The notes beneath the pieces were generated by a model. That model saw only the letters and a list, made by a program, of their open reading frames with translations. It had not been told where the DNA came from and made no database searches. A stretch of DNA of 20,000 nt, taken from an uncultured virus (IMG/VR IMGVR_UViG_3300005588_000005) (lineage: Duplodnaviria > Heunggongvirae > Uroviricota > Caudoviricetes). The DNA lies in IMG/VR virus record IMGVR_UViG_3300005588_000005. One strand, given 5' to 3'. Shown piece after piece: positions 2,173 through 18,886 of the stretch; positions within the stretch are counted from its first letter, which is position 1, and every line of letters begins with the position of its first letter. The position numbers were made by a program, and so were the translations under genes.

Positions 2173-2482
2173 CGTTATCAATGACAACTGCCTTGGTTCC
2201 TTCAGGTGCGTACTTGAACATTTGATTTGTTGCCCACTCGGACAACTGAGCATCGGTCATCAGCGTATCGTCAACCAACGCGTCGATTTCTTCAGGTGTC
2301 CGCCTTTTCAGGCCGAGCGTCACGCGGACATTGATTTCCTTTTGGCAGTGCGGACAGGCTATCGACTTGTCAGGATGGATGTATTTGCCTGGTTCTATGG
2401 CAAACACAATCTTTTCCTTGCATTTTCCACACTTCCCTTCAAGTTTGTCTGCAATGACAGAAGGGCTTGATTCGGTGTTCAT
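1952..2482 (-). CDS. Zinc-ribbon hypothetical protein
   Basis: CGKC...CPHC motif pair. Start overlaps the upstream stop (ATGA, 2479-2482). The C-terminal part overlaps the next gene in another frame. Confidence 0.55.
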   Translation of the reverse strand: MNTESSPSVIADKLEGKCGKCKEKIVFAIEPGKYIHPDKSIACPHCQKEINVRVTLGLKRRTPEEIDALVDDTLMTDAQLSEWATNQMFKYAPEGTKAVVIDNDGKIQEQTKEEVIQHHRDSVQDGRRDDHLRGLPPGDESPGRVLGGETGSVGATDEPADAEDQDEEGCRPDGDC

Positions 2483-2667
2483 TCGTCTTCATCCTCCACG
2501 GGGTGACTGGTCATGTTGTGGCACTCGCCACACTCCAAAGAAACGATCGGTTCGTCGTAAGATTCCTCGATCGCAATTACTGAAACCTGGACGTGGTTGC
2601 AGATAGAGCACTCTGTTTCGCCGGTCCACCACTTGTATCCGCATGGCAAAGGCTTGCATTTACTCAT
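2479..2667 (-). CDS. Small zinc-ribbon protein
   Basis: MSKCKPLP...CSIC...CGEC. ATG 2667 overlaps the stop of the upstream gene (ATGAGTAA), suggesting translational coupling. Confidence 0.6.
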   Translation of the reverse strand: MSKCKPLPCGYKWWTGETECSICNHVQVSVIAIEESYDEPIVSLECGECHNMTSHPVEDEDE

Positions 2668-2962
2668 TTGAATACTCGAAGGAATAATTCTTCCATGGGA
2701 GAGGTTTTGGATCATCCCGGGCAGCCCCATGCTCTTTGTAGTGGATGAACGCTTGCACTAAGTTGATTCCATGACCGCATTTTGGGCAGATAATCCAGTC
2801 ACTTTCCGAAAACACATCGCTTTGCTTCACCAAGACTGACCAAGTGTGATCGCATTGCCAACGCATACAGCGGAGGGTTTCAGGTCTGACAGATTGATTC
2901 TTGGTAAGGAAGCATGGGATCAATGTCGCAACCATTGATTTGAACCACGATCGTCTTTTCAT
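2660..2962 (-). CDS. Small hypothetical protein with CPKC motif and twin-arginine-like N-terminus
   Basis: 100 aa; TGATG overlap with the portal stop; begins MKRRSWFKSMVATLIPCFL. Confidence 0.55.
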   Translation of the reverse strand: MKRRSWFKSMVATLIPCFLTKNQSVRPETLRCMRWQCDHTWSVLVKQSDVFSESDWIICPKCGHGINLVQAFIHYKEHGAARDDPKPLPWKNYSFEYSNE

Positions 2963-4929
2963 CAGGTCATTCCCCCAGGTGTTTGAGGACCGGCCGTCGC
3001 AGCTGCATTCATCATCTGCGATGACTGGGCCATCGGACTATTCTGTCCGGCAGAAACGTTCTCCCGGACATACCGGCGCGTGCCGTTGGGAGGCGACGAC
3101 GGAACCTTGGTCAAAGGTTGCAGTTCCATGTCATCGCCAGATCCGCCCATGAATTTGACCACATTCCGCAACTCAGGAAGGTTCATCAGTTCGGAGAACG
3201 TCTCGACCAAAGCAAACATGTCGACCATCCCTCCTTGCTGCTGAAGGTACGGCGCCAACGGCATGATGACTTGCTGGACGACGGTCGTAAGCTTTTGGAT
3301 CTTTTCTTCCGGACCCTCGTATCGCATCGAGTAAATGTCGACGTCGAAGTTGAAGTCAATGAAGTTCCCTTCCCGATCGCCAGGCTTCCATACTTCGGAA
3401 ACGGTAATGCTCGTCCCGGGAATCGGAATCTCCATCACAATTTCCTTGACCGAGTCTTGCCACAGCATCATGCCGAGGCAGCGAAACAGGCGGGAAGTCT
3501 TCTCAATCACCCGCTTGCCCATTTTGTCGACCTTCCGCGACGCGGCTCCGTGGATCAGCCTGTCCTGTCCGAGAGTCCCCGCTTGGGCGCCGAGTCCCAG
3601 TTGTGCGGAAAGGTTGCCGGCCATCCGGTCGAACAGTTCGATGCCGCCGATCATGAAACCGTGGGTCCCGGCGTCAACGCCGCCAAACGTCAATTGACCA
3701 ATCTCGTTCGGATCGTTCACGCAAACCGTTCCGCCGTCTTCTGTGATCGCAACGTTCTGGACGTCCTTCGCAGCGCCAGCGGTGTACGTCGTGACCGTCT
3801 TCTGGGCTCGAGCCTGTGTCGATTCCTTCCGCATCAGGTCGTTCACAAGCGTTTCCAGCAATTCCAAGTTCGCCGCCGGCGACGAAGGCATGATGTTTTC
3901 CGGAACATCGTGAAAGCCGAGAAGGTGGTATGGTCCAAGCTCGTCGCCCGTCCATTCCTCGACAGCAATCGGACCGGGTCCGGCCAGGGACATTTTCGTC
4001 CTGTCTTGGATGACGTACGTGTAAACGACCCCGTGCCGCGGAACCCAAAGATCGATCAGATCAATCATGTCCTCCAAGTCGTCTTGGTCATTCTCTTGTG
4101 ACCGACTCATTCCCTCGACACGATCTCGCTCGTCGTTCTGGGTCAACGTCGACGGCTGGTGATCTGACATCGCATCTTCGCCGAAAATGTCGATCGCCTC
4201 TTCCCACGACAATCGGTACATGTCGCCGGCGTACCGCACTTCCGACCACTTGTTCGCCTTCATGTCGTAAACGAAGTCGTCCAGAGCGATGTTCGAAGCA
4301 AACGGCCGACCAGGATCCATCCACAAATCTGTCTCGACCTGGACCATCCCAGCATTGGCCATGTGGGTTTTGATGATGCCAACACAGAAGTACGCGTCCA
4401 TGATCCACTGTTCCAGAGTCTCCGGAAGGTGGATTTCCTTCACAAGCGCGTTCAACGCACGCTGGAAGTGCTTGGAAAAGGCCTTGTATTGAGGGAATTC
4501 GGTCGACACCAGCGCCCGAGGCTTGTCCGACACAAGATTGATCTGAGCAGCTTCAACAGCCTGTTGTATCAGATTCAAATAGCGGTTCGGATGATTTTCG
4601 TCCTCGCCGTAGGAGGAACCGCCGTAAAGCTCCGTCAGACTGTGATTCATCTCACGGAATGGCTCGAGACTGCGGTACGATCGCTCAACCGATCGCATGA
4701 ACCGAGATTGATCGCCGTCGTACCGCAATCCGCCGCCGCCGCCAAACAGTTCTTCCAACCGGTCTTCGTCGGCAGGCGCTCGAGAGGCAAAAGGCCCTTC
4801 GCCGGTATAAACTCCCGGCCTGACTCGCAGCCGATCGGGCATGTACTCGCCATCCCTGACGTTTTCGTACATGGACTTTGGAGAGAAGTCGGCTTCCGAA
4901 TCGTCGTCTACAACCGGCATTGAATACAT
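2962..4929 (-). CDS. Phage portal protein
   Basis: 655 aa, downstream of terL and upstream of scaffold/MCP. Size, helical character and the Q/M/P-rich C-terminal tail fit P22-like portals. Confidence 0.8.
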   Translation of the reverse strand: MYSMPVVDDDSEADFSPKSMYENVRDGEYMPDRLRVRPGVYTGEGPFASRAPADEDRLEELFGGGGGLRYDGDQSRFMRSVERSYRSLEPFREMNHSLTELYGGSSYGEDENHPNRYLNLIQQAVEAAQINLVSDKPRALVSTEFPQYKAFSKHFQRALNALVKEIHLPETLEQWIMDAYFCVGIIKTHMANAGMVQVETDLWMDPGRPFASNIALDDFVYDMKANKWSEVRYAGDMYRLSWEEAIDIFGEDAMSDHQPSTLTQNDERDRVEGMSRSQENDQDDLEDMIDLIDLWVPRHGVVYTYVIQDRTKMSLAGPGPIAVEEWTGDELGPYHLLGFHDVPENIMPSSPAANLELLETLVNDLMRKESTQARAQKTVTTYTAGAAKDVQNVAITEDGGTVCVNDPNEIGQLTFGGVDAGTHGFMIGGIELFDRMAGNLSAQLGLGAQAGTLGQDRLIHGAASRKVDKMGKRVIEKTSRLFRCLGMMLWQDSVKEIVMEIPIPGTSITVSEVWKPGDREGNFIDFNFDVDIYSMRYEGPEEKIQKLTTVVQQVIMPLAPYLQQQGGMVDMFALVETFSELMNLPELRNVVKFMGGSGDDMELQPLTKVPSSPPNGTRRYVRENVSAGQNSPMAQSSQMMNAAATAGPQTPGGMT

Positions 4930-4938
4930 CTGGGATTC

Positions 4939-5310
4939 CTACTTTACGTCTGGGTCGTCGTCCTCCCCACACCAACACAAGATGCACGGCAAGGAAACGA
5001 TTGGTTTGTGGCATTCCGGGCAGTTGAACCGACTCATCAGCGACACCGATGCCGATGCCGGAAGACCGTTTCTCCTGCAAAACGAAACTGCTACGTTATC
5101 GCACGTCCACAGCATACGATTCAATCCAATAAATTCCCCCGGAGAAAGCCCACAAACACGGGCTTTATCCCTGATCGCCAAAGAATGGTACGACCAAAAG
5201 CCAATCACGCGACGCGCTGGGATGATTAGATGCCGCGCCAAATAGGGGTTCTGGACGTTGGAAATCCAGATACTCTTGACCGGTTTCCCGGACAGAAAGT
5301 ATTGGCTCAT
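4939..5310 (-). CDS. Hypothetical protein with C-terminal Zn finger (CPEC...PCILC)
   Basis: ATG 5310 (MSQYFLSG) overlaps the terL stop (ATGA). The extra N-terminal part of ORF 4939..5505 lies inside terL and is unlikely to be translated. Confidence 0.6.
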   Translation of the reverse strand: MSQYFLSGKPVKSIWISNVQNPYLARHLIIPARRVIGFWSYHSLAIRDKARVCGLSPGEFIGLNRMLWTCDNVAVSFCRRNGLPASASVSLMSRFNCPECHKPIVSLPCILCWCGEDDDPDVK

Positions 5311-7292
5311 CGTCTTCTCTTCAGCACACTGCCCACCCATCTGTCCCGCCTTTTGTTGAGTTCTGCTGCCCGATCCTCCTGACGGTACATGTCCACACGC
5401 TCCGCCATCGTCCCGCTGATTGACTGAGATTTGACCATCGCCTTTCCCTGCTCGTCCATAATAACCCCAACGTATTCGCTCGGACGATCTAGCAGTTGCT
5501 GACAATTCACCCCGAAAGCAATCACGCGGTCACCGTGGGCCTTCCCTTTGCTCGAATCATCCTTCGTCGTCAGACTTTGGGCGTGCTCAATCTTCCCGTT
5601 GATCATCACGTACTGCCGGAATTCCAACGCAAGTTTCTTGCACTTGACGATCGCTTCGGAAGCACGAACAGCCCGGGTCATCTCCGAAAACATGATCCCT
5701 TTCGAATAATCGTCCGTGTGGAAACCCAAGTCGGTCGTGACAGTCCGCTTCTTCTTCTTGAACGAATGACGGCGATAACAGTTCGGGTACTTCAGATCCT
5801 TGATCCGCTTGGTGAATGCACCGCCCTGCTGGCCGTTGGATTCCCACCCCAAATACGCACCGTAAAGCCACAGCGCTGCAGCAACAGAAAGGTCAGCAAA
5901 TTCCGACGGTTCGATCGTGTTCGCCGCATACCCCAAAATCTGCTCGTGGGTCGACAGGTCGGATCCGTACAACGTCGAATTGCTGGTGTGACTCCCGCCA
6001 AGACCGGATGAAATGTCAGCCGACAACGCGTACATCCCTTTCGGTGGTCGCCCCTGGACGTTCAGCGGAACCCAAAGATCGACCGGACCGCTCCGGATCT
6101 CCTGGAATTCGGCTTTCATTACCATCTCGCCATCCTCAACATGGCTGGTCACCGAGAAATTGCCGGTGTGGGTCGGGACGGCAATCGACTGGTGAACCGC
6201 CTTGATGAACTCGTTGCCAAACACCAAGAACGACGATCCGCCATAATCCCGGTCAAGCTCCTGAGCGATAGACTGCGGCGTCATCCCAGCGCGATCGCAC
6301 TCATGGTCGTACCATGGACTCCGCTGAATTCGCTCCCCGTCCTTGTTCTTCTCAAGATTGAATCCCCGCGATCGCAATCTCGAGAACAGGTCGAGCACTT
6401 CCTTTGTCGGTGGGTTGTAGTGCGACGGCAACGGATTATTCACAGGGTCGACCGCAACCGGCTTCCCCCGCTTCATCACGTACAAGCCGCGATTCCGCGT
6501 AACGTTCTGCTTCCAGTCGATGACGACCGGCACCATCGCCGACGGTTCGTGCATCACGTTGTAATATTCGTTGTGACAGCCGTTGACCGTCGACACGAAC
6601 ACTCGGCAGTTCGTTGAACCGTGACTCGAATTCAAAGCCTCCGTGTCTTCGCCCTTGTTGAAGAAGGCGAATTCGTCCATCACAGCGTAAGTCAGACGAC
6701 CGCCGCGGAAGATGTTGCCGGTCGCCGCGCCAGCAGCGATTGAGGACCCCGTCCACTTGTGTGCCCAAGTGTGATTGTTCCGATTCCGCGTCCAATCCCT
6801 GCCTTTGATCCCCACCATCCATTCGGGAAGGCAATCCAACTCGTAGTCAATCTTCCATCCCAGCGAGTCGGAGTCGTCCGGGTTGTCAGCCGCAAGCTCT
6901 GTCCGGGAGACAAGACCGACTTTCGCATCCTCATCATTGACGAATGAATTACAAGCAAAAAGCACCGCGATCCAGCTCATCCCCTCACCACGGCTTTTCT
7001 CTACCCCGATGTCCTCGTGACCAAGATGCTCATTGATCTTGCGAATCGCGTCAACTTGGTGGGGCCAGGGAATGAACGGAACCCGCTTGCTGTACTTCAC
7101 CCCGTCCCGAATCTTCGGCCGAGGCTCGTAAACCCAGCAGAACGTCGAGAAGAACCACAAGACGTCATCCTTGCACGCGGACAACGCCATGTCCCGGAAC
7201 TTCTTCGAAAACTCGCACTTCTTCAGGATGTCATTGCGGTAACCGAGATTGTCATCCGTATCCAGCGGCACACGCGAAAACCAATCCGTCAT
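5307..7292 (-). CDS. terL: Terminase large subunit
   Basis: 661 aa. Adenine-binding PWPHQ, Walker A-type EKSRGEGMSW, Walker B GGRLTYAVMDEFAF, coupling motif VSTVNG, and RNase H-like nuclease residues in SADISSG and HGDRVIA. Confidence 0.92.
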   Translation of the reverse strand: MTDWFSRVPLDTDDNLGYRNDILKKCEFSKKFRDMALSACKDDVLWFFSTFCWVYEPRPKIRDGVKYSKRVPFIPWPHQVDAIRKINEHLGHEDIGVEKSRGEGMSWIAVLFACNSFVNDEDAKVGLVSRTELAADNPDDSDSLGWKIDYELDCLPEWMVGIKGRDWTRNRNNHTWAHKWTGSSIAAGAATGNIFRGGRLTYAVMDEFAFFNKGEDTEALNSSHGSTNCRVFVSTVNGCHNEYYNVMHEPSAMVPVVIDWKQNVTRNRGLYVMKRGKPVAVDPVNNPLPSHYNPPTKEVLDLFSRLRSRGFNLEKNKDGERIQRSPWYDHECDRAGMTPQSIAQELDRDYGGSSFLVFGNEFIKAVHQSIAVPTHTGNFSVTSHVEDGEMVMKAEFQEIRSGPVDLWVPLNVQGRPPKGMYALSADISSGLGGSHTSNSTLYGSDLSTHEQILGYAANTIEPSEFADLSVAAALWLYGAYLGWESNGQQGGAFTKRIKDLKYPNCYRRHSFKKKKRTVTTDLGFHTDDYSKGIMFSEMTRAVRASEAIVKCKKLALEFRQYVMINGKIEHAQSLTTKDDSSKGKAHGDRVIAFGVNCQQLLDRPSEYVGVIMDEQGKAMVKSQSISGTMAERVDMYRQEDRAAELNKRRDRWVGSVLKRRR

Positions 7293-7308
7293 GGTCGATC
7301 ATCCAAAA

Positions 7309-8061
7309 CTAAGATTGCAACATGACGTAGCTTGCAGGGTAAGTCGCTTCCATTCTCGTCGTAAATTCATCGTCGCTGGGACGCTTGTCTAGTGTGAAAA
7401 GACGACTCTTTGCAATGTGCAACGTTGCGTCGGCAATCGATTGTGGTGTCTGGAATGTGCTCAACGGGTCCGCAACCAGCCAATCATAACGACCAGCATC
7501 GGGAACACTTACCGCCGGTGAAACTTCAACAGTGACGCCAACGCGTTTATTGATCCAAGTTCTGGAAATTCCATTATGAAGAAACTCGACTTCAGTGTCG
7601 TGCATGAACAAAGGAAGCCTGGAAATCATCCATTCGAATTTCTGGCCAAGAGAATCCATGTCCTGAGCACAGTACGAAGATTCTTCGTTTCGACCAACCA
7701 AAAGAATACGCTTCAGATCGCTTGACCCAAGAGCGTATGCGTGCAACGCGACCATCAAAGCCAATTGCGTCGCGCCGTATTCCCGGTCGTACCAGAAAAC
7801 CACATCCTTCTTTCCGGCATTCAAGCAAATCTCACGAAGGTTCTCTTCCTGATTCTTCCGGCAAATGAACGGATTTTCTCTACCCGTACGTGGGTCAAAA
7901 ACCCATCCGAACAGATTGCTAAACGCGACAATGTCATCGCGAAACACACTCAGTAATCCATCGCCGTTGAAGTCAGACGTCGCCATGAACCAAGACCTGT
8001 ACACAAAGTTCAGCTGATGGTCAGTCGGAATGAATTTCGACACCAGATCGGATTGTGACAT
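7309..8061 (-). CDS. Degenerate paralog of the terminase ATPase domain
   Basis: 250 aa, colinear by eye with terL residues 1-240 (e.g. RDDIVAFSNLFGWVFDPR vs KDDVLWFFSTFCWVYEPR; DMDSLGQKFEWMISRLP vs DSDSLGWKIDYELDCLP). Walker A and B catalytic residues are substituted. Confidence 0.8.
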   Translation of the reverse strand: MSQSDLVSKFIPTDHQLNFVYRSWFMATSDFNGDGLLSVFRDDIVAFSNLFGWVFDPRTGRENPFICRKNQEENLREICLNAGKKDVVFWYDREYGATQLALMVALHAYALGSSDLKRILLVGRNEESSYCAQDMDSLGQKFEWMISRLPLFMHDTEVEFLHNGISRTWINKRVGVTVEVSPAVSVPDAGRYDWLVADPLSTFQTPQSIADATLHIAKSRLFTLDKRPSDDEFTTRMEATYPASYVMLQS

Positions 8062-9839: not shown

Positions 9840-10900
9840 GAATCCTCATACGAAAAATGCCGGGCGAACGTGAGCCTTCACCCGGCATACTGAGAAATTG
9901 CGAGCTCCCCAGAAAGAGGGCAGCACCGAAACGCCGCCACCAACCACAAATGGAAGATGCTCACGACTCCACGAATCATAGACCCACAAACACACCTTTT
10001 CAATCAAACAAAAGGCACCCCCCATCACCAAAACCAAAATGGGGCCCCCGAAAACATCCCAAAACACCACAGAATGACACGCCAAAACCCGGTTTCGCTA
10101 AATCTGTCTAAACGGGCTAACTTAGGTACCAGCAATCGCGAGCCGGCGATCGCGGGTCAAAACTGAAATCCGGATGGGTCCCTCTTTTCCCCTTAGACCC
10201 AAAAACACCTCAATCAGGCGTGTTCTCGCCAAACCAAGGACCAACGTGTCATCGATCCTGCACCACCTAAGGACGCATAAACAATGGAGTGCGACCCTAG
10301 CTCAAAATCGTGGCGAGGACACGCCAGGACGCTGCCGAGCGAGCCCGTGGGGAGGCAGGCGAACACGACCAGACACGCACATTTTAGCTCGTTCGCCTCA
10401 TCTGTCGCCGTTTCGGTTGCTTGTTGGCGGCGTTGTGGTGTCTGTCTGTCGGTGCTGTGGGTTGCTTGGTTGGTTGTCGTCGTTCGCGTCGTCCGATGGC
10501 TGTTGTGGTGGCCTGGTTGCGTGTTGTTGGTCTGTCCGATGTGGTCTTCGTCGTGCGGTTTCTGTTGTCGTTCGTCGTGTTGTCGTCTTCCGGTGGTTGT
10601 TGGTCTTTGGTTGGTCTTGTGGTTATTGGTCTTTGGGAGGGAGCATTGGTCGGAAAATCTGGTTTTCGGATGTCGATCTGTTGTGCGGGTTCGGTTGTTG
10701 ATCGGGGTCGGAGCGGTCGCCGACTGACGAATCTACTGACAACCATGTCAGTAGCTGAAACACGGGGTTTTTGGCGTTTTGAAAACGAGTTTGTGTCTCC
10801 GTCGTCGAATGGGGTCGATAAAAAGTTTGAGAAAATTCTGATTTTGTTTGTAACATTTCGGTGGTTTGTCCGCTTAATACATTGCGAGCTCGTTCTTACC
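9840..10900. other. Non-coding divergent region with strand-composition switch (candidate pac/origin/control region)
   Basis: The plus strand is C/A-rich up to ~10380 and strongly G/T-rich from ~10385 to ~10720. The region separates divergently transcribed gene blocks, and ORFs here are low-complexity. Confidence 0.5.
10733..10754. promoter_or_regulatory. Perfect 9-bp inverted repeat, operator-like
   Basis: CTACTGACA-ACCA-TGTCAGTAG, ~175 nt upstream of the first plus-strand gene. Confidence 0.45.
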
Positions 10901-16541: not shown

Positions 16542-16811
16542 TCACGCTTCGGAGCCCACCACATCGCCAGGGCGAAGCACAGCACCATGATCAACCACAC
16601 TAGGGCGAATGGATTGATCAGGTACAGGATCGTCGTCTGGAACCATTCCATCATCTTCATTCCCCTCAAGTTCAGAACGTATTATCCGATGGTGATCAGA
16701 CGCCTTGATCCCAACTCGTACCCGATTCCCCTTCACGCCGAGGACAATGAACTCAATGTCTTGTCCAACGACTTGAATCCCTTCACCTGCTTTCCGTGAC
16801 AGTACCAACAT
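16542..16811 (-). CDS. csrA: Carbon storage regulator (CsrA/RsmA family) homolog
   Basis: MLVLSRKAGEGIQV...IEFIVLGVKGNRVRVGIKA...IIRSEL matches the CsrA consensus, including the conserved Arg of the C-terminal R-x-E motif; C-terminal extension; GGAG RBS. Confidence 0.9.
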   Translation of the reverse strand: MLVLSRKAGEGIQVVGQDIEFIVLGVKGNRVRVGIKASDHHRIIRSELEGNEDDGMVPDDDPVPDQSIRPSVVDHGAVLRPGDVVGSEA

Positions 16812-17607: not shown

Positions 17608-18273
17608 TTACTTGGTCCAGTCGTCGTCGTCATTGGCGAAGGCGTCGGGCAGTGTACCGTTATCCAACGCGTGCAAATACGTGTTGGTGATGCTGATATT
17701 GCAGTGTCCTGCAGCGTCGCGGACGGCGGCGGCAGAGTGGCCGATATTGAGCATGTGAGAGCAGAACGAATGTCGGCCAGAGTGCGGGCTTAGTTGCTTG
17801 CATCGTTCTTCACCGAGACACCGTATCGCGTTCATGAATCGACGGTACATCTTCTTGCGTTCGACGATCTTGGTTTGGTCGCGCTGGTACGGGTGCATGA
17901 TGAAGTAGGCCGTCGGATTGTCGTTCGTCTGTAACATCCGGTAGTTCCAGAAGTCTTCGAGGTCGAACTTGGTCCCGTGGTCCCACCACAGTGGAATTTT
18001 GCGTGGACGTGGGTTCGGGCCTTTCGTCGCTTCCTTCCGTACCTGGACATACGGGCGTTCGCCGGCAAAGTGAAAGTCTCGCAATTGGGAGTGTTGAATC
18101 TCCTTGCATCGCATCCCGCAGCATGTCGCCAGGCGGAAAACCGCGAGGTTCCGAAAATGGCTCTCGGAGTGGACACCGGTGGTCGACGTCCGCTTAGCTC
18201 TGAGGTCGTCCACCACCTTGAGGATTTCCGGAAGCAGGAAAACACGCGTCTGAAGTTCGATCAGGCTATTCAT
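17608..18273 (-). CDS. Tyrosine recombinase, catalytic domain only
   Basis: RNLAVFRLATCCGMRCKEI (R), TKG (K), PHSGRHSF (HxxR), AGHCNISITNTYLH (H, Y); 221 aa. Confidence 0.92.
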   Translation of the reverse strand: MNSLIELQTRVFLLPEILKVVDDLRAKRTSTTGVHSESHFRNLAVFRLATCCGMRCKEIQHSQLRDFHFAGERPYVQVRKEATKGPNPRPRKIPLWWDHGTKFDLEDFWNYRMLQTNDNPTAYFIMHPYQRDQTKIVERKKMYRRFMNAIRCLGEERCKQLSPHSGRHSFCSHMLNIGHSAAAVRDAAGHCNISITNTYLHALDNGTLPDAFANDDDDWTK

Positions 18274-18886
18274 TCTCGTTTCTCTCCTTTCGCTTTTGTC
18301 GGTACAGGAACTTCACAAGGTCGACGTATCGGATCCGGAGCAACCGCCTGCTGCCTTCCGTTCGGCTGACATCGCATGTTCGCAGGCCGTTGGAAACCCA
18401 CACGTTGACCGTTGTTCGATGAACGCGGCACAGTTCGGCCACTTCGCTTACGGTAAGCAGTTCGCTAGGAAGGAATTTCATGACTTCTTTCAGAGTGATT
18501 CGAAAGGGCGCCCGTGGTGACGTCAGTTCAAGATACGACACAAGGTCAAAATCCTTCGGTCTCTTCGATGCCAACAACGCGAGTTGCCAGGCTTCTTCGT
18601 GCAACTGACGATCGGTGAATGCGCCGTTACATGACCAGCAGAGGACCAGCGTCGCATACCGTTTATCCAACGCTTTCTGGCGATCCGGACCGCAGCAGAT
18701 CTCGTGAACACACAATTGCGAAAGTTCCAGCGGCAAGCTGTAGTCCGGATCGTTTTCGGAATGTCCGCAGTTCTCGCATTCGCCGGCCTCCTTAATCAGA
18801 GCCAGGCGTTTCGGTTTGGCTTCGGCTTCCCGCTTCCGTCTCTTCTCGCTCATTCTTCGCATTTTCCTGTCGCTCATTCTTCGCAC
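18266..18886 (-). CDS. HNH-like Zn domain fused to excisionase/MerR-type HTH
   Basis: N-terminal CENC...VHEI...LVLCWSCN; C-terminal LLTVSEVAELCRVHRTTVNVWVSNGL...LRIRYVDLVKFL. Start uncertain (18886, 18877, 18862 or 18853). Confidence 0.7.
   Translation of the reverse strand: MRRMSDRKMRRMSEKRRKREAEAKPKRLALIKEAGECENCGHSENDPDYSLPLELSQLCVHEICCGPDRQKALDKRYATLVLCWSCNGAFTDRQLHEEAWQLALLASKRPKDFDLVSYLELTSPRAPFRITLKEVMKFLPSELLTVSEVAELCRVHRTTVNVWVSNGLRTCDVSRTEGSRRLLRIRYVDLVKFLYRQKRKERNENE

Follow-up and report, generated by a model that had tools for sequence, protein, structure and literature searches.

Large terminases (TerL) are regarded as homomeric motors made from a single gene, and they are also the proteins by which bacterial Avs receptors detect infection. 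Truncated copies encoded beside terL are known in print only in passing. In phage CBB, the product of CBB_274 carries an incomplete gp17 domain according to a hit in the CDD database and lies beside the full terminase CBB_275. A truncated large terminase beside terL was likewise reported in other Rak2-like phages, in phiM12 and in phiN3, in a passage of the CBB report that calls the arrangement unusual and names no function for it (Buttimer et al. 2017, PMC5259590). Our literature searches found no study on the function of a dead TerL paralog and turned up only that passage. Here we analyze P0001, a gene of this kind encoded next to terL in the uncultured Caudoviricetes virus record IMGVR_UViG_3300005588_000005, within a window of 20,000 nucleotides (nt), which is the whole stretch of DNA considered. 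The initial annotation of this DNA knew of no described system of this kind; the CBB report describes one. P0001 is an independent birth of such a gene, in another TerL lineage and in a mid-sized phage.

Homology, predicted fold and motifs of P0001

Residues 11-207 of P0001 aligned in BLASTP with residues 8-215 of the adjacent TerL at 66.6 bits and an E value of 7e-17, with 53/210 positions identical and 15 gap positions. The start is homologous as well (MSQSDLVSKFIPTDHQLNFVYR aligns to MTDWFSRVPLDTDDNLGYR), and the similarity extends almost to the stop codon. When the P0001 gene was shuffled, the mean number of stops was 12.6 and the frame was open in 0/2000 shuffles; neither the similarity nor the open frame is thus a matter of chance. 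The initial annotation had proposed that a 250-amino acid (aa) open reading frame (ORF) ending 16 nt upstream of terL was a tandem paralog of the TerL ATPase domain that had lost its catalytic residues. Every block that it quoted is present in our alignment, the pairwise comparison that it suggested as a check is significant, and the motif comparison described below agrees with it.

Searching 1.84 billion representative proteins with phmmer gave 177 matches at E<=1e-3, the best non-self match reaching 1.4e-14, and all 149 non-self matches among those listed align via the TerL-type N-terminal domain. Thirteen of the shorter matches (174-331 aa) were read, and they have an intact KSR-type Walker A without exception (13/13), so that, judged by this motif, they are fragments of TerL and not dead copies. 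For P0001 there was neither a Pfam match at E<=1 nor a PHROG match at E<=0.1, hence none to Terminase_6N or phrog_2; since the real TerL itself reaches only E 0.066 on Terminase_6N, the Pfam negative is little informative.

An AlphaFold2 model of P0001, computed from an alignment with 41 TerLs, had a predicted local distance difference test (pLDDT) score of 88.8 and shows the RecA-like terminase ATPase fold. It covers the equivalent of T4 gp17 residues 58-315, and the terminases of T7, PhiV-1, P74-26, HK97, Sf6 and D6E ranked next. This fold also sets P0001 apart from small terminases, which are small helical DNA-recognition proteins. Ending at the equivalent of gp17 residue 315, P0001 has no C-terminal RNase H-like nuclease domain, as the initial annotation had stated, and its truncation point coincides with the end of the RecA-like ATPase subdomain, a domain boundary.

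To place the motifs, we compared a profile of 30 family TerLs with T4 gp17 (E 2.3e-8), which paired KSRGEGMS with LSRQLGKT (Walker A), MDE with IDE (D255/E256) and VST with ITTT (the coupling motif). The adjacent TerL has its motifs intact, with a deviant Walker A (KSRGEGMS) and a Walker B ending in DE. In P0001, the Walker A segment EKSRGEGMS has become WYDREYGAT: K99, invariant in 41/41 TerLs, is replaced by Y91 and W107 by Q99, and R93 and G96 are retained. In Walker B, DE has become DP, with D198 retained and the catalytic glutamate E207 (T4 E256) replaced by P199. The coupling motif FVSTV has become FTLDK, so that S234/T235, the latter being the family-invariant threonine of the T4 TTT motif, correspond to L224/D225. 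The three motif losses read by the initial annotation were thus confirmed residue by residue. With the P-loop lysine, the catalytic glutamate, the coupling motif and the nuclease gone, P0001 cannot, as judged from its sequence, be a packaging ATPase or nuclease. Within the TerL family itself (window 5307-7292, family alignment A1), a methionine occupies the position of T4 K166 and the invariant lysine lies six residues earlier; we take this KSRGEGMS-type Walker A, with its lysine at the start of the loop, to be the deviant type described for some terminases.

P0001 retains 20/32 of the columns that are at least 90% conserved among the 41 TerLs, and matches the neighboring TerL in 39/201 of the other columns (Fisher p 1.5e-6); this preferential retention argues against uniform decay. 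The residues kept are P12, N18 and R22, which form the N-terminal motif; Q71 of the Q motif, on the adenine side; R93, the P-loop arginine; and D43, P57, R58, P64, F65, G83, D86, G96, K141, P150, N171, G190, R191, D198 and R220. The 12/32 conserved columns that were lost include the lysine, the glutamate and T235.

Origin, selection and a proposed role as terminase modulator

The closest relative with genomic context, locus L087 from a Planctomycetota metagenome-assembled genome, has a TerL 63% identical to that of the window and containing an intein. Its gene order is a homolog of g242 (229 aa), a homolog of g338 that lacks the middle part (192 aa), an 8-nt gap and terL, g242 and g338 being the two genes that precede P0001 in the window. 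Given this order without P0001, P0001 is by this comparison a gain of about 770 nt in the present lineage. The same slot upstream of terL seems to have gained g338, which is absent from more distant relatives, and later the middle domain of g338. P0001 would be a lineage-specific partial copy of the first ~775 nt of terL that begins at the start codon and stops where the RecA-like ATPase subdomain ends. The simplest route would be a tandem duplication starting at the junction before terL and reaching roughly codon 258; the homologous start and the similarity almost to the stop codon are what such an event would leave. In a quick tree, the branch leading to P0001 measures 5.4 changes per site (median 0.74) and arises near the midpoint, outside the clade of the neighboring TerL. 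In an approximately unbiased (AU) test, a clade of P0001, the neighboring TerL and another TerL (P0003) was not rejected (p 0.54), the constrained tree being 0.85 log-likelihood units better than the free one. Tree and test do not distinguish a local duplication from a captured foreign fragment. By eye, the 16 nt that precede the ATG of terL are unlike the 16 nt that precede that of P0001; a footprint of the duplication at the DNA level is not expected at such divergence.

We simulated neutral drift of the first 774 nt of terL in 3000 runs, at its own base composition, with a transition bias of 2 and without indels. The frame was still open in 240/3000 runs at 80% aa identity, in 33/3000 at 66%, in 1/3000 at 47.5% and in 0/3000 at both 35% and 25%. 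P0001 has changed at about a third of the sites that no working TerL changes (12/32), and with these near-invariant residues lost its divergence would correspond to the 66% case or worse, even from an unsampled, very divergent TerL ancestor. The rarity of open frames under drift, together with the preferential keeping of conserved residues, makes simple decay of P0001 unlikely and suggests that selection has kept it open and foldable. The initial annotation had argued from the intact frame to selection, and the neutral runs (at most 33/3000 at 66%) and the Fisher test both speak for that argument.

Our best guess, which we hold tentatively and with somewhat less than even confidence, is that P0001 serves the terminase as a partner or modulator devoid of catalytic activity. 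The protein would keep the fold without ATP hydrolysis or nuclease activity, and it would probably be made together with TerL, as the two genes lie in the same gene string. It would work through binding rather than catalysis, taking the place of the N-terminal domain of TerL in a contact that this domain normally makes with a second TerL or with g242, the small-terminase candidate. This contact, or a nucleotide pocket, may be marked by what P0001 has retained: the N-terminal and Q motifs, the arginine of the P-loop, G190-R191 and the aspartate of Walker B.

A complex prediction of TerL (alignment A1) with P0001 (alignment A2) gave scores of 0.00 and 0.26, with the mark at 0.32, and counts neither for nor against binding. 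Several observations weigh against such a terminase modulator. A ring motor would presumably be poisoned by a dead subunit made beside TerL, a cost that this reading has to accommodate. The predicted fold of P0001 is partly inherited from the TerL alignment; the homology stands without the model, since the sequence match is independent of it. No ortholog was found in a protein collection clustered at 90% (216 candidates, self only), and none, nor any non-TerL relative, among the 1.84 billion representatives. Viral and metagenome scans returned the same 4857-base contig and one match of 46 residues (locus L086, 38% identity), which had no tblastn hit at E<=1e-3, and tblastn of P0001 against 50,697 cultured-phage records returned nothing. 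Of 118 loci of the TerL family (80 viral and 38 from genomes), 82 include the N-terminus of TerL and at least 800 nt upstream of terL, and no second TerL-like copy was seen in any of them at E<=1 (0/82), except for one match at E 0.44; P0001 is likewise absent from L087. Matches to the TerL N-terminal domain were found in 53 cultured-phage records, at one place in each. GC content is lower in P0001 than in its neighbors (0.48 versus 0.555 for terL), also at third codon positions (GC3, 0.53 versus 0.705 for terL), and its codon-usage score is weaker (0.083 versus 0.164), yet best in its own frame; the low GC3 and codon score fit relaxed constraint or a foreign origin. Finally, open frames were selected at the outset, which biases the material toward rare survivors, so that P0001 could be one of the ~1% of neutral survivors. 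The single match at E 0.44 is a stretch of 60 residues just upstream of terL in locus L043 (4808-4978), which resembles TerL residues 5-64 at 31.7% identity; it is probably due to chance and is the sole hint of a second copy in the 82 loci.

Alternatively, P0001 may be a non-functional remnant, either a partial duplicate of terL or a foreign terL 5' fragment brought by illegitimate recombination into a variable slot, that is drifting and by chance still open. A singleton, absent from the 82 informative relatives, from L087 and from the collections, is what such a remnant would look like, as are the low GC3 and codon score, the end branch of 5.4-5.7 changes per site (median 0.7), and a slot in which g338 is absent from distant relatives and the Sequestin domain of g338 from L087; the choice of open frames would favor finding it. 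Against this stand the low survival of the frame in the simulations (33/3000 at 66%, 1/3000 at 47.5%), in which indels were not even counted, the retention of conserved fold positions three times as often as others, and a truncation that coincides with a domain boundary. Frequent duplication and decay would moreover predict stop-bearing, decayed copies in relatives, and none was seen there. We consider a remnant fairly unlikely. The initial annotation had taken absence from related phages combined with neutral evolution as the sign of a decaying duplicate; the absence was indeed found (0/82 loci), the neutral evolution was not.

The Sequestin-domain neighbor and other possible roles

The gene preceding P0001, g338, matches PF21825 at 46.6 bits (cut-off 24.8) over residues 92-150. 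It is the family called Sequestin in the Atlas, which relates it to Tad2-like proteins, and a 2025 preprint shows PF21825 proteins to be sponges for the Thoeris signal 3'cADPR (10.1101/2025.07.12.664507). By its domain content, g338 is probably a counter-defense gene. The Sequestin domain is preceded by an N-terminal domain (residues 7-84), which is 59% identical in L087, and is followed by a C-terminal part (251-322). The L087 homolog of g338 (3686-4264, 192 aa) lacks the middle part and abuts terL directly, with the 8-nt gap mentioned above; the sponge domain thus resembles an insert within a conserved gene preceding terL.

Such a neighbor raises the prior for a role of P0001 in defense, the link being adjacency to one gene rather than to a cluster. 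In that case P0001 could be a mimic of the TerL fold that binds a terminase-sensing host sensor, of the type of the Avs1-3 STAND NTPases, without activating it; alternatively, it could mask TerL monomers from such a sensor. Among the functional readings we place this decoy or shield second, after the terminase modulator, and regard it as quite unlikely. The anti-Thoeris domain next door speaks for it, but adjacency is the sole link, and P0001 has lost the very active site that the sensors would read: Avs sensors reportedly read active-site residues and bound nucleotide. Furthermore, Ksap2 of phage Bas60, which like P0001 is a small stand-alone phage protein resembling the TerL ATPase domain (in the case of Ksap2, a weak structural likeness), activates KpAvs2 rather than blocking it (PMC11564622), so that an extra TerL-like protein may be a liability. 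We found no terminase decoy in the literature. On a broader version, which we consider improbable, the dead half-copy and the Sequestin gene would form a two-gene counter-defense unit before terL, the half-copy being a mimic that engages terminase sensors or shields TerL from them, with independent births in Rak2-like jumbo phages and in this 72-kb phage. If true, such births would reflect a general, so far undescribed phage escape from terminase sensing. Very improbable, in our view, is a weapon against competing phages, in which a truncated, dominant-negative TerL would disrupt the motors of related phages that co-infect or superinfect the cell. The TerL of the phage itself would have to be divergent enough to stay unaffected. 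The retention of the TerL fold and of the N-terminal family motif speaks for such a weapon, and the integrase in the window suggests that the phage may be temperate, but P0001 lies within the late packaging gene string and has no promoter-like site of its own, unlike typical exclusion genes expressed by lysogens. Least credible of all is a nucleotide binder, in which the dead pocket would hold an adenine nucleotide or an immune signaling nucleotide, as a switch or as a sponge beside the Sequestin-domain gene. Pocket residues are kept (Q71 on the adenine side, R93 and G96 of the P-loop, D198 of Walker B) and a sponge-domain gene adjoins, but the P-loop lysine and neighboring residues are lost, and the sponges known so far are small homo-oligomers whose pockets lie where the subunits meet.

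The locus and its comparison with known truncated terminases

On the minus strand the genes follow in the order g242, g338, P0001, terL, a small ORF, the portal gene and more head genes (Table 1). A site scan found no promoter- or terminator-like site in the 49-nt and 16-nt gaps that flank P0001. We rejected a read-through fusion of P0001 with TerL, because the distance of 770 nt between the two starts places them in different frames. An assembly artifact was also rejected: a protein identity of 25% does not fit a repeat that was collapsed, and both genes lie on one contig of run X1 (18,292 bases). Recorded contigs that encode the exact P0001 protein reach 72,131 bases, pointing to a phage of ~72 kb. 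The stretch was found in two public marine-sediment runs, which may be the sample it came from, on contigs identical to the window and without variant letters; no RNA run is listed among the public runs that contain it.

Table 1. Positions of P0001, its motifs and other features in the window.
Feature	Position	Strand	Remarks
Portal gene	2962..4929	minus	SU10_portal E 1.8e-7
188-aa ORF	4939..5505	minus	overlaps terL 3' end by 199 nt
terL, 661 aa, full large terminase with nuclease half	5307..7292	minus	phrog_2 E 5.8e-18
16-nt spacer, P0001 TAG to terL ATG	7293..7308	minus	ATG at 7292
P0001, motif-dead truncated TerL ATPase-domain homolog, 250 aa	7309..8061	minus	stop TAG
Lost coupling (C) motif, T223-L224-D225 of P0001	7387..7395	minus	
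Walker B remnant D198-P199 of P0001	7465..7470	minus	
Degenerate Walker A WYDREYGAT of P0001	7768..7794	minus	residues 90-98
49-nt spacer between g338 and P0001	8062..8110	minus	
g338, 338 aa	8111..9127	minus	PF21825 (crAss001_48 / Sequestin) domain at residues 92-150
g242, 242 aa	9160..9888	minus	all-helical predicted protein
Divergent intergenic region	9889..10173		
Promoter-like site TTGAAA-17-TATGAT	10003..9975	minus	
C-5 cytosine DNA methyltransferase, 542 aa	13620..15248	plus	PF00145 E 1.8e-38
CsrA homolog	16542..16811	minus	Pfam CsrA E 4.1e-15
Tyrosine recombinase with overlapped 206-aa protein	17608..18886	minus	
Tyrosine recombinase, 221 aa	17608..18273	minus	Phage_integrase E 2.1e-17

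The C-terminal part of g242 has a match just upstream of terL in 8 viral relatives (L008, L009, L010, L011, L016, L018, L019 and L023), with gaps of about 0-170 nt, and the ORFs that bear the match end 0-67 nt before the TerL match. One further relative (L064) has a short match close to terL, without a comparable ORF ending there. The g242 model is all-helical (pLDDT 75) and includes a helix of 45 residues; it had no structural match in BFVD at E<=0.001 and no usable hit in the Atlas. By position only, g242 is a candidate for the small terminase. In alignment A3, g242 and the ORFs of the 8 relatives share an invariant H..AM / D..APS..A...L..W......F motif, as well as an acidic tail ending in a helix.

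Several TerLs of the family (that of L087, at 4273-7254, and P0004, P0017, P0029, P0039, P0046 and P0051) are 950-1018 aa long, and LAGLIDADG domains (PF14528) were found in P0004, P0017, P0039 and P0046. The extra part of the L087 TerL follows TerL residue 147, and the coordinates of the phmmer matches suggest further insertion sites near Walker A (P0029) and before about residue 60 (P0051). At about 6966-6969 of the window, both IMG/VR contigs (4857 and 6679 bases) and both contigs of run X2 break inside terL, at about codon 108-110 and just after Walker A, and run X1 reads across; this shared breakpoint may reflect strain heterogeneity, for example an intein-bearing variant. Relatives match the 188-aa ORF that overlaps terL only from residue ~52-70 on, and its true start is therefore probably an internal codon downstream of terL. 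Elsewhere in the window, GC and AT skew switch sharply in the divergent intergenic region between the minus-strand packaging genes and the plus-strand genes, where the promoter-like site is found. The PF00145 matches of the methyltransferase fall in two widely separated stretches, suggesting that the conserved halves are parted by a long insert. A CsrA homolog is encoded by the phage, and the tyrosine recombinase overlaps the end of a 206-aa protein that carries an HTH_17 excisionase-like domain.

P0001 shares its fold with the N-terminal ATPase domain of large terminases (T4 gp17, 2o0h/2o0j/3cpe, and those of P74-26, HK97, Sf6 and D6E), but has neither their P-loop lysine and catalytic glutamate nor their coupling motif, and it is also without a second ATPase subdomain half and without the nuclease. 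We did not use T4 vs.8 as a parallel: it matches Terminase_6N weakly (E 0.14 over 37 residues), reaches an hhalign probability of 0.12 against the TerL alignment, has no terminase match in the PDB and still has a GRQSGKS P-loop. Closer are the truncated terminases of Rak2-like phages. In phage 121Q, gp3 (227 aa, 1570-2253), which belongs to phrog_27915 and is annotated as being of unknown function, overlaps the TerL gp4 (2231-3868) by 23 nt. Relatives of gp3 occur in 47 records of Rak2-like phages, with identities that fall to 29%, and in most of the matches listed they lie beside or partly under a terminase annotation. BLASTP of gp3 against its own TerL gave E 5.6; its terminase nature follows from the CDD hit for CBB_274, in the passage of the CBB report cited above (PMC5259590), and from the structural match in BFVD. 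The P0001 model matches a 235-aa CBB protein (A0A1L2CV01) at E 2.9e-5, with template modeling (TM) scores of 0.57/0.60, and other short terminase-fold proteins, such as one of 244 aa from Agrobacterium phage Atu_ph07.

The Rak2-like truncated terminase and P0001 are alike in size (~230 versus 250 aa), in comprising an ATPase-type domain only, without nuclease, and in lying directly upstream of a full terL on the same strand. By sequence, P0001 did not fall into the Rak2-like family (BLASTP E 0.12 and hhalign probability 0.05 against 121Q gp3; no PHROG hit). As fold and position are shared without a relation between the sequence families, the origin of P0001 is, on these comparisons, independent of the Rak2-like copies. 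A single uncultured singleton cannot by itself settle what truncated terminases do. Nuclease-less, dead copies of the ATPase domain beside terL have nevertheless now been seen in several unrelated phage groups, and P0001 shows what such a copy retains after losing catalysis. Its N-terminal and Q motifs, the arginine of its P-loop, G190-R191 and the aspartate of Walker B are candidates for a shared binding surface, through which the role of truncated terminases becomes testable. Whereas the Rak2-like gene is kept across 47 records and 121Q gp3 is no longer clearly similar to its own TerL, P0001 is a singleton in a phage of ~72 kb and still clearly resembles the TerL next to it, a resemblance that marks it as a young case and points to partial duplication of the 5' end of terL.

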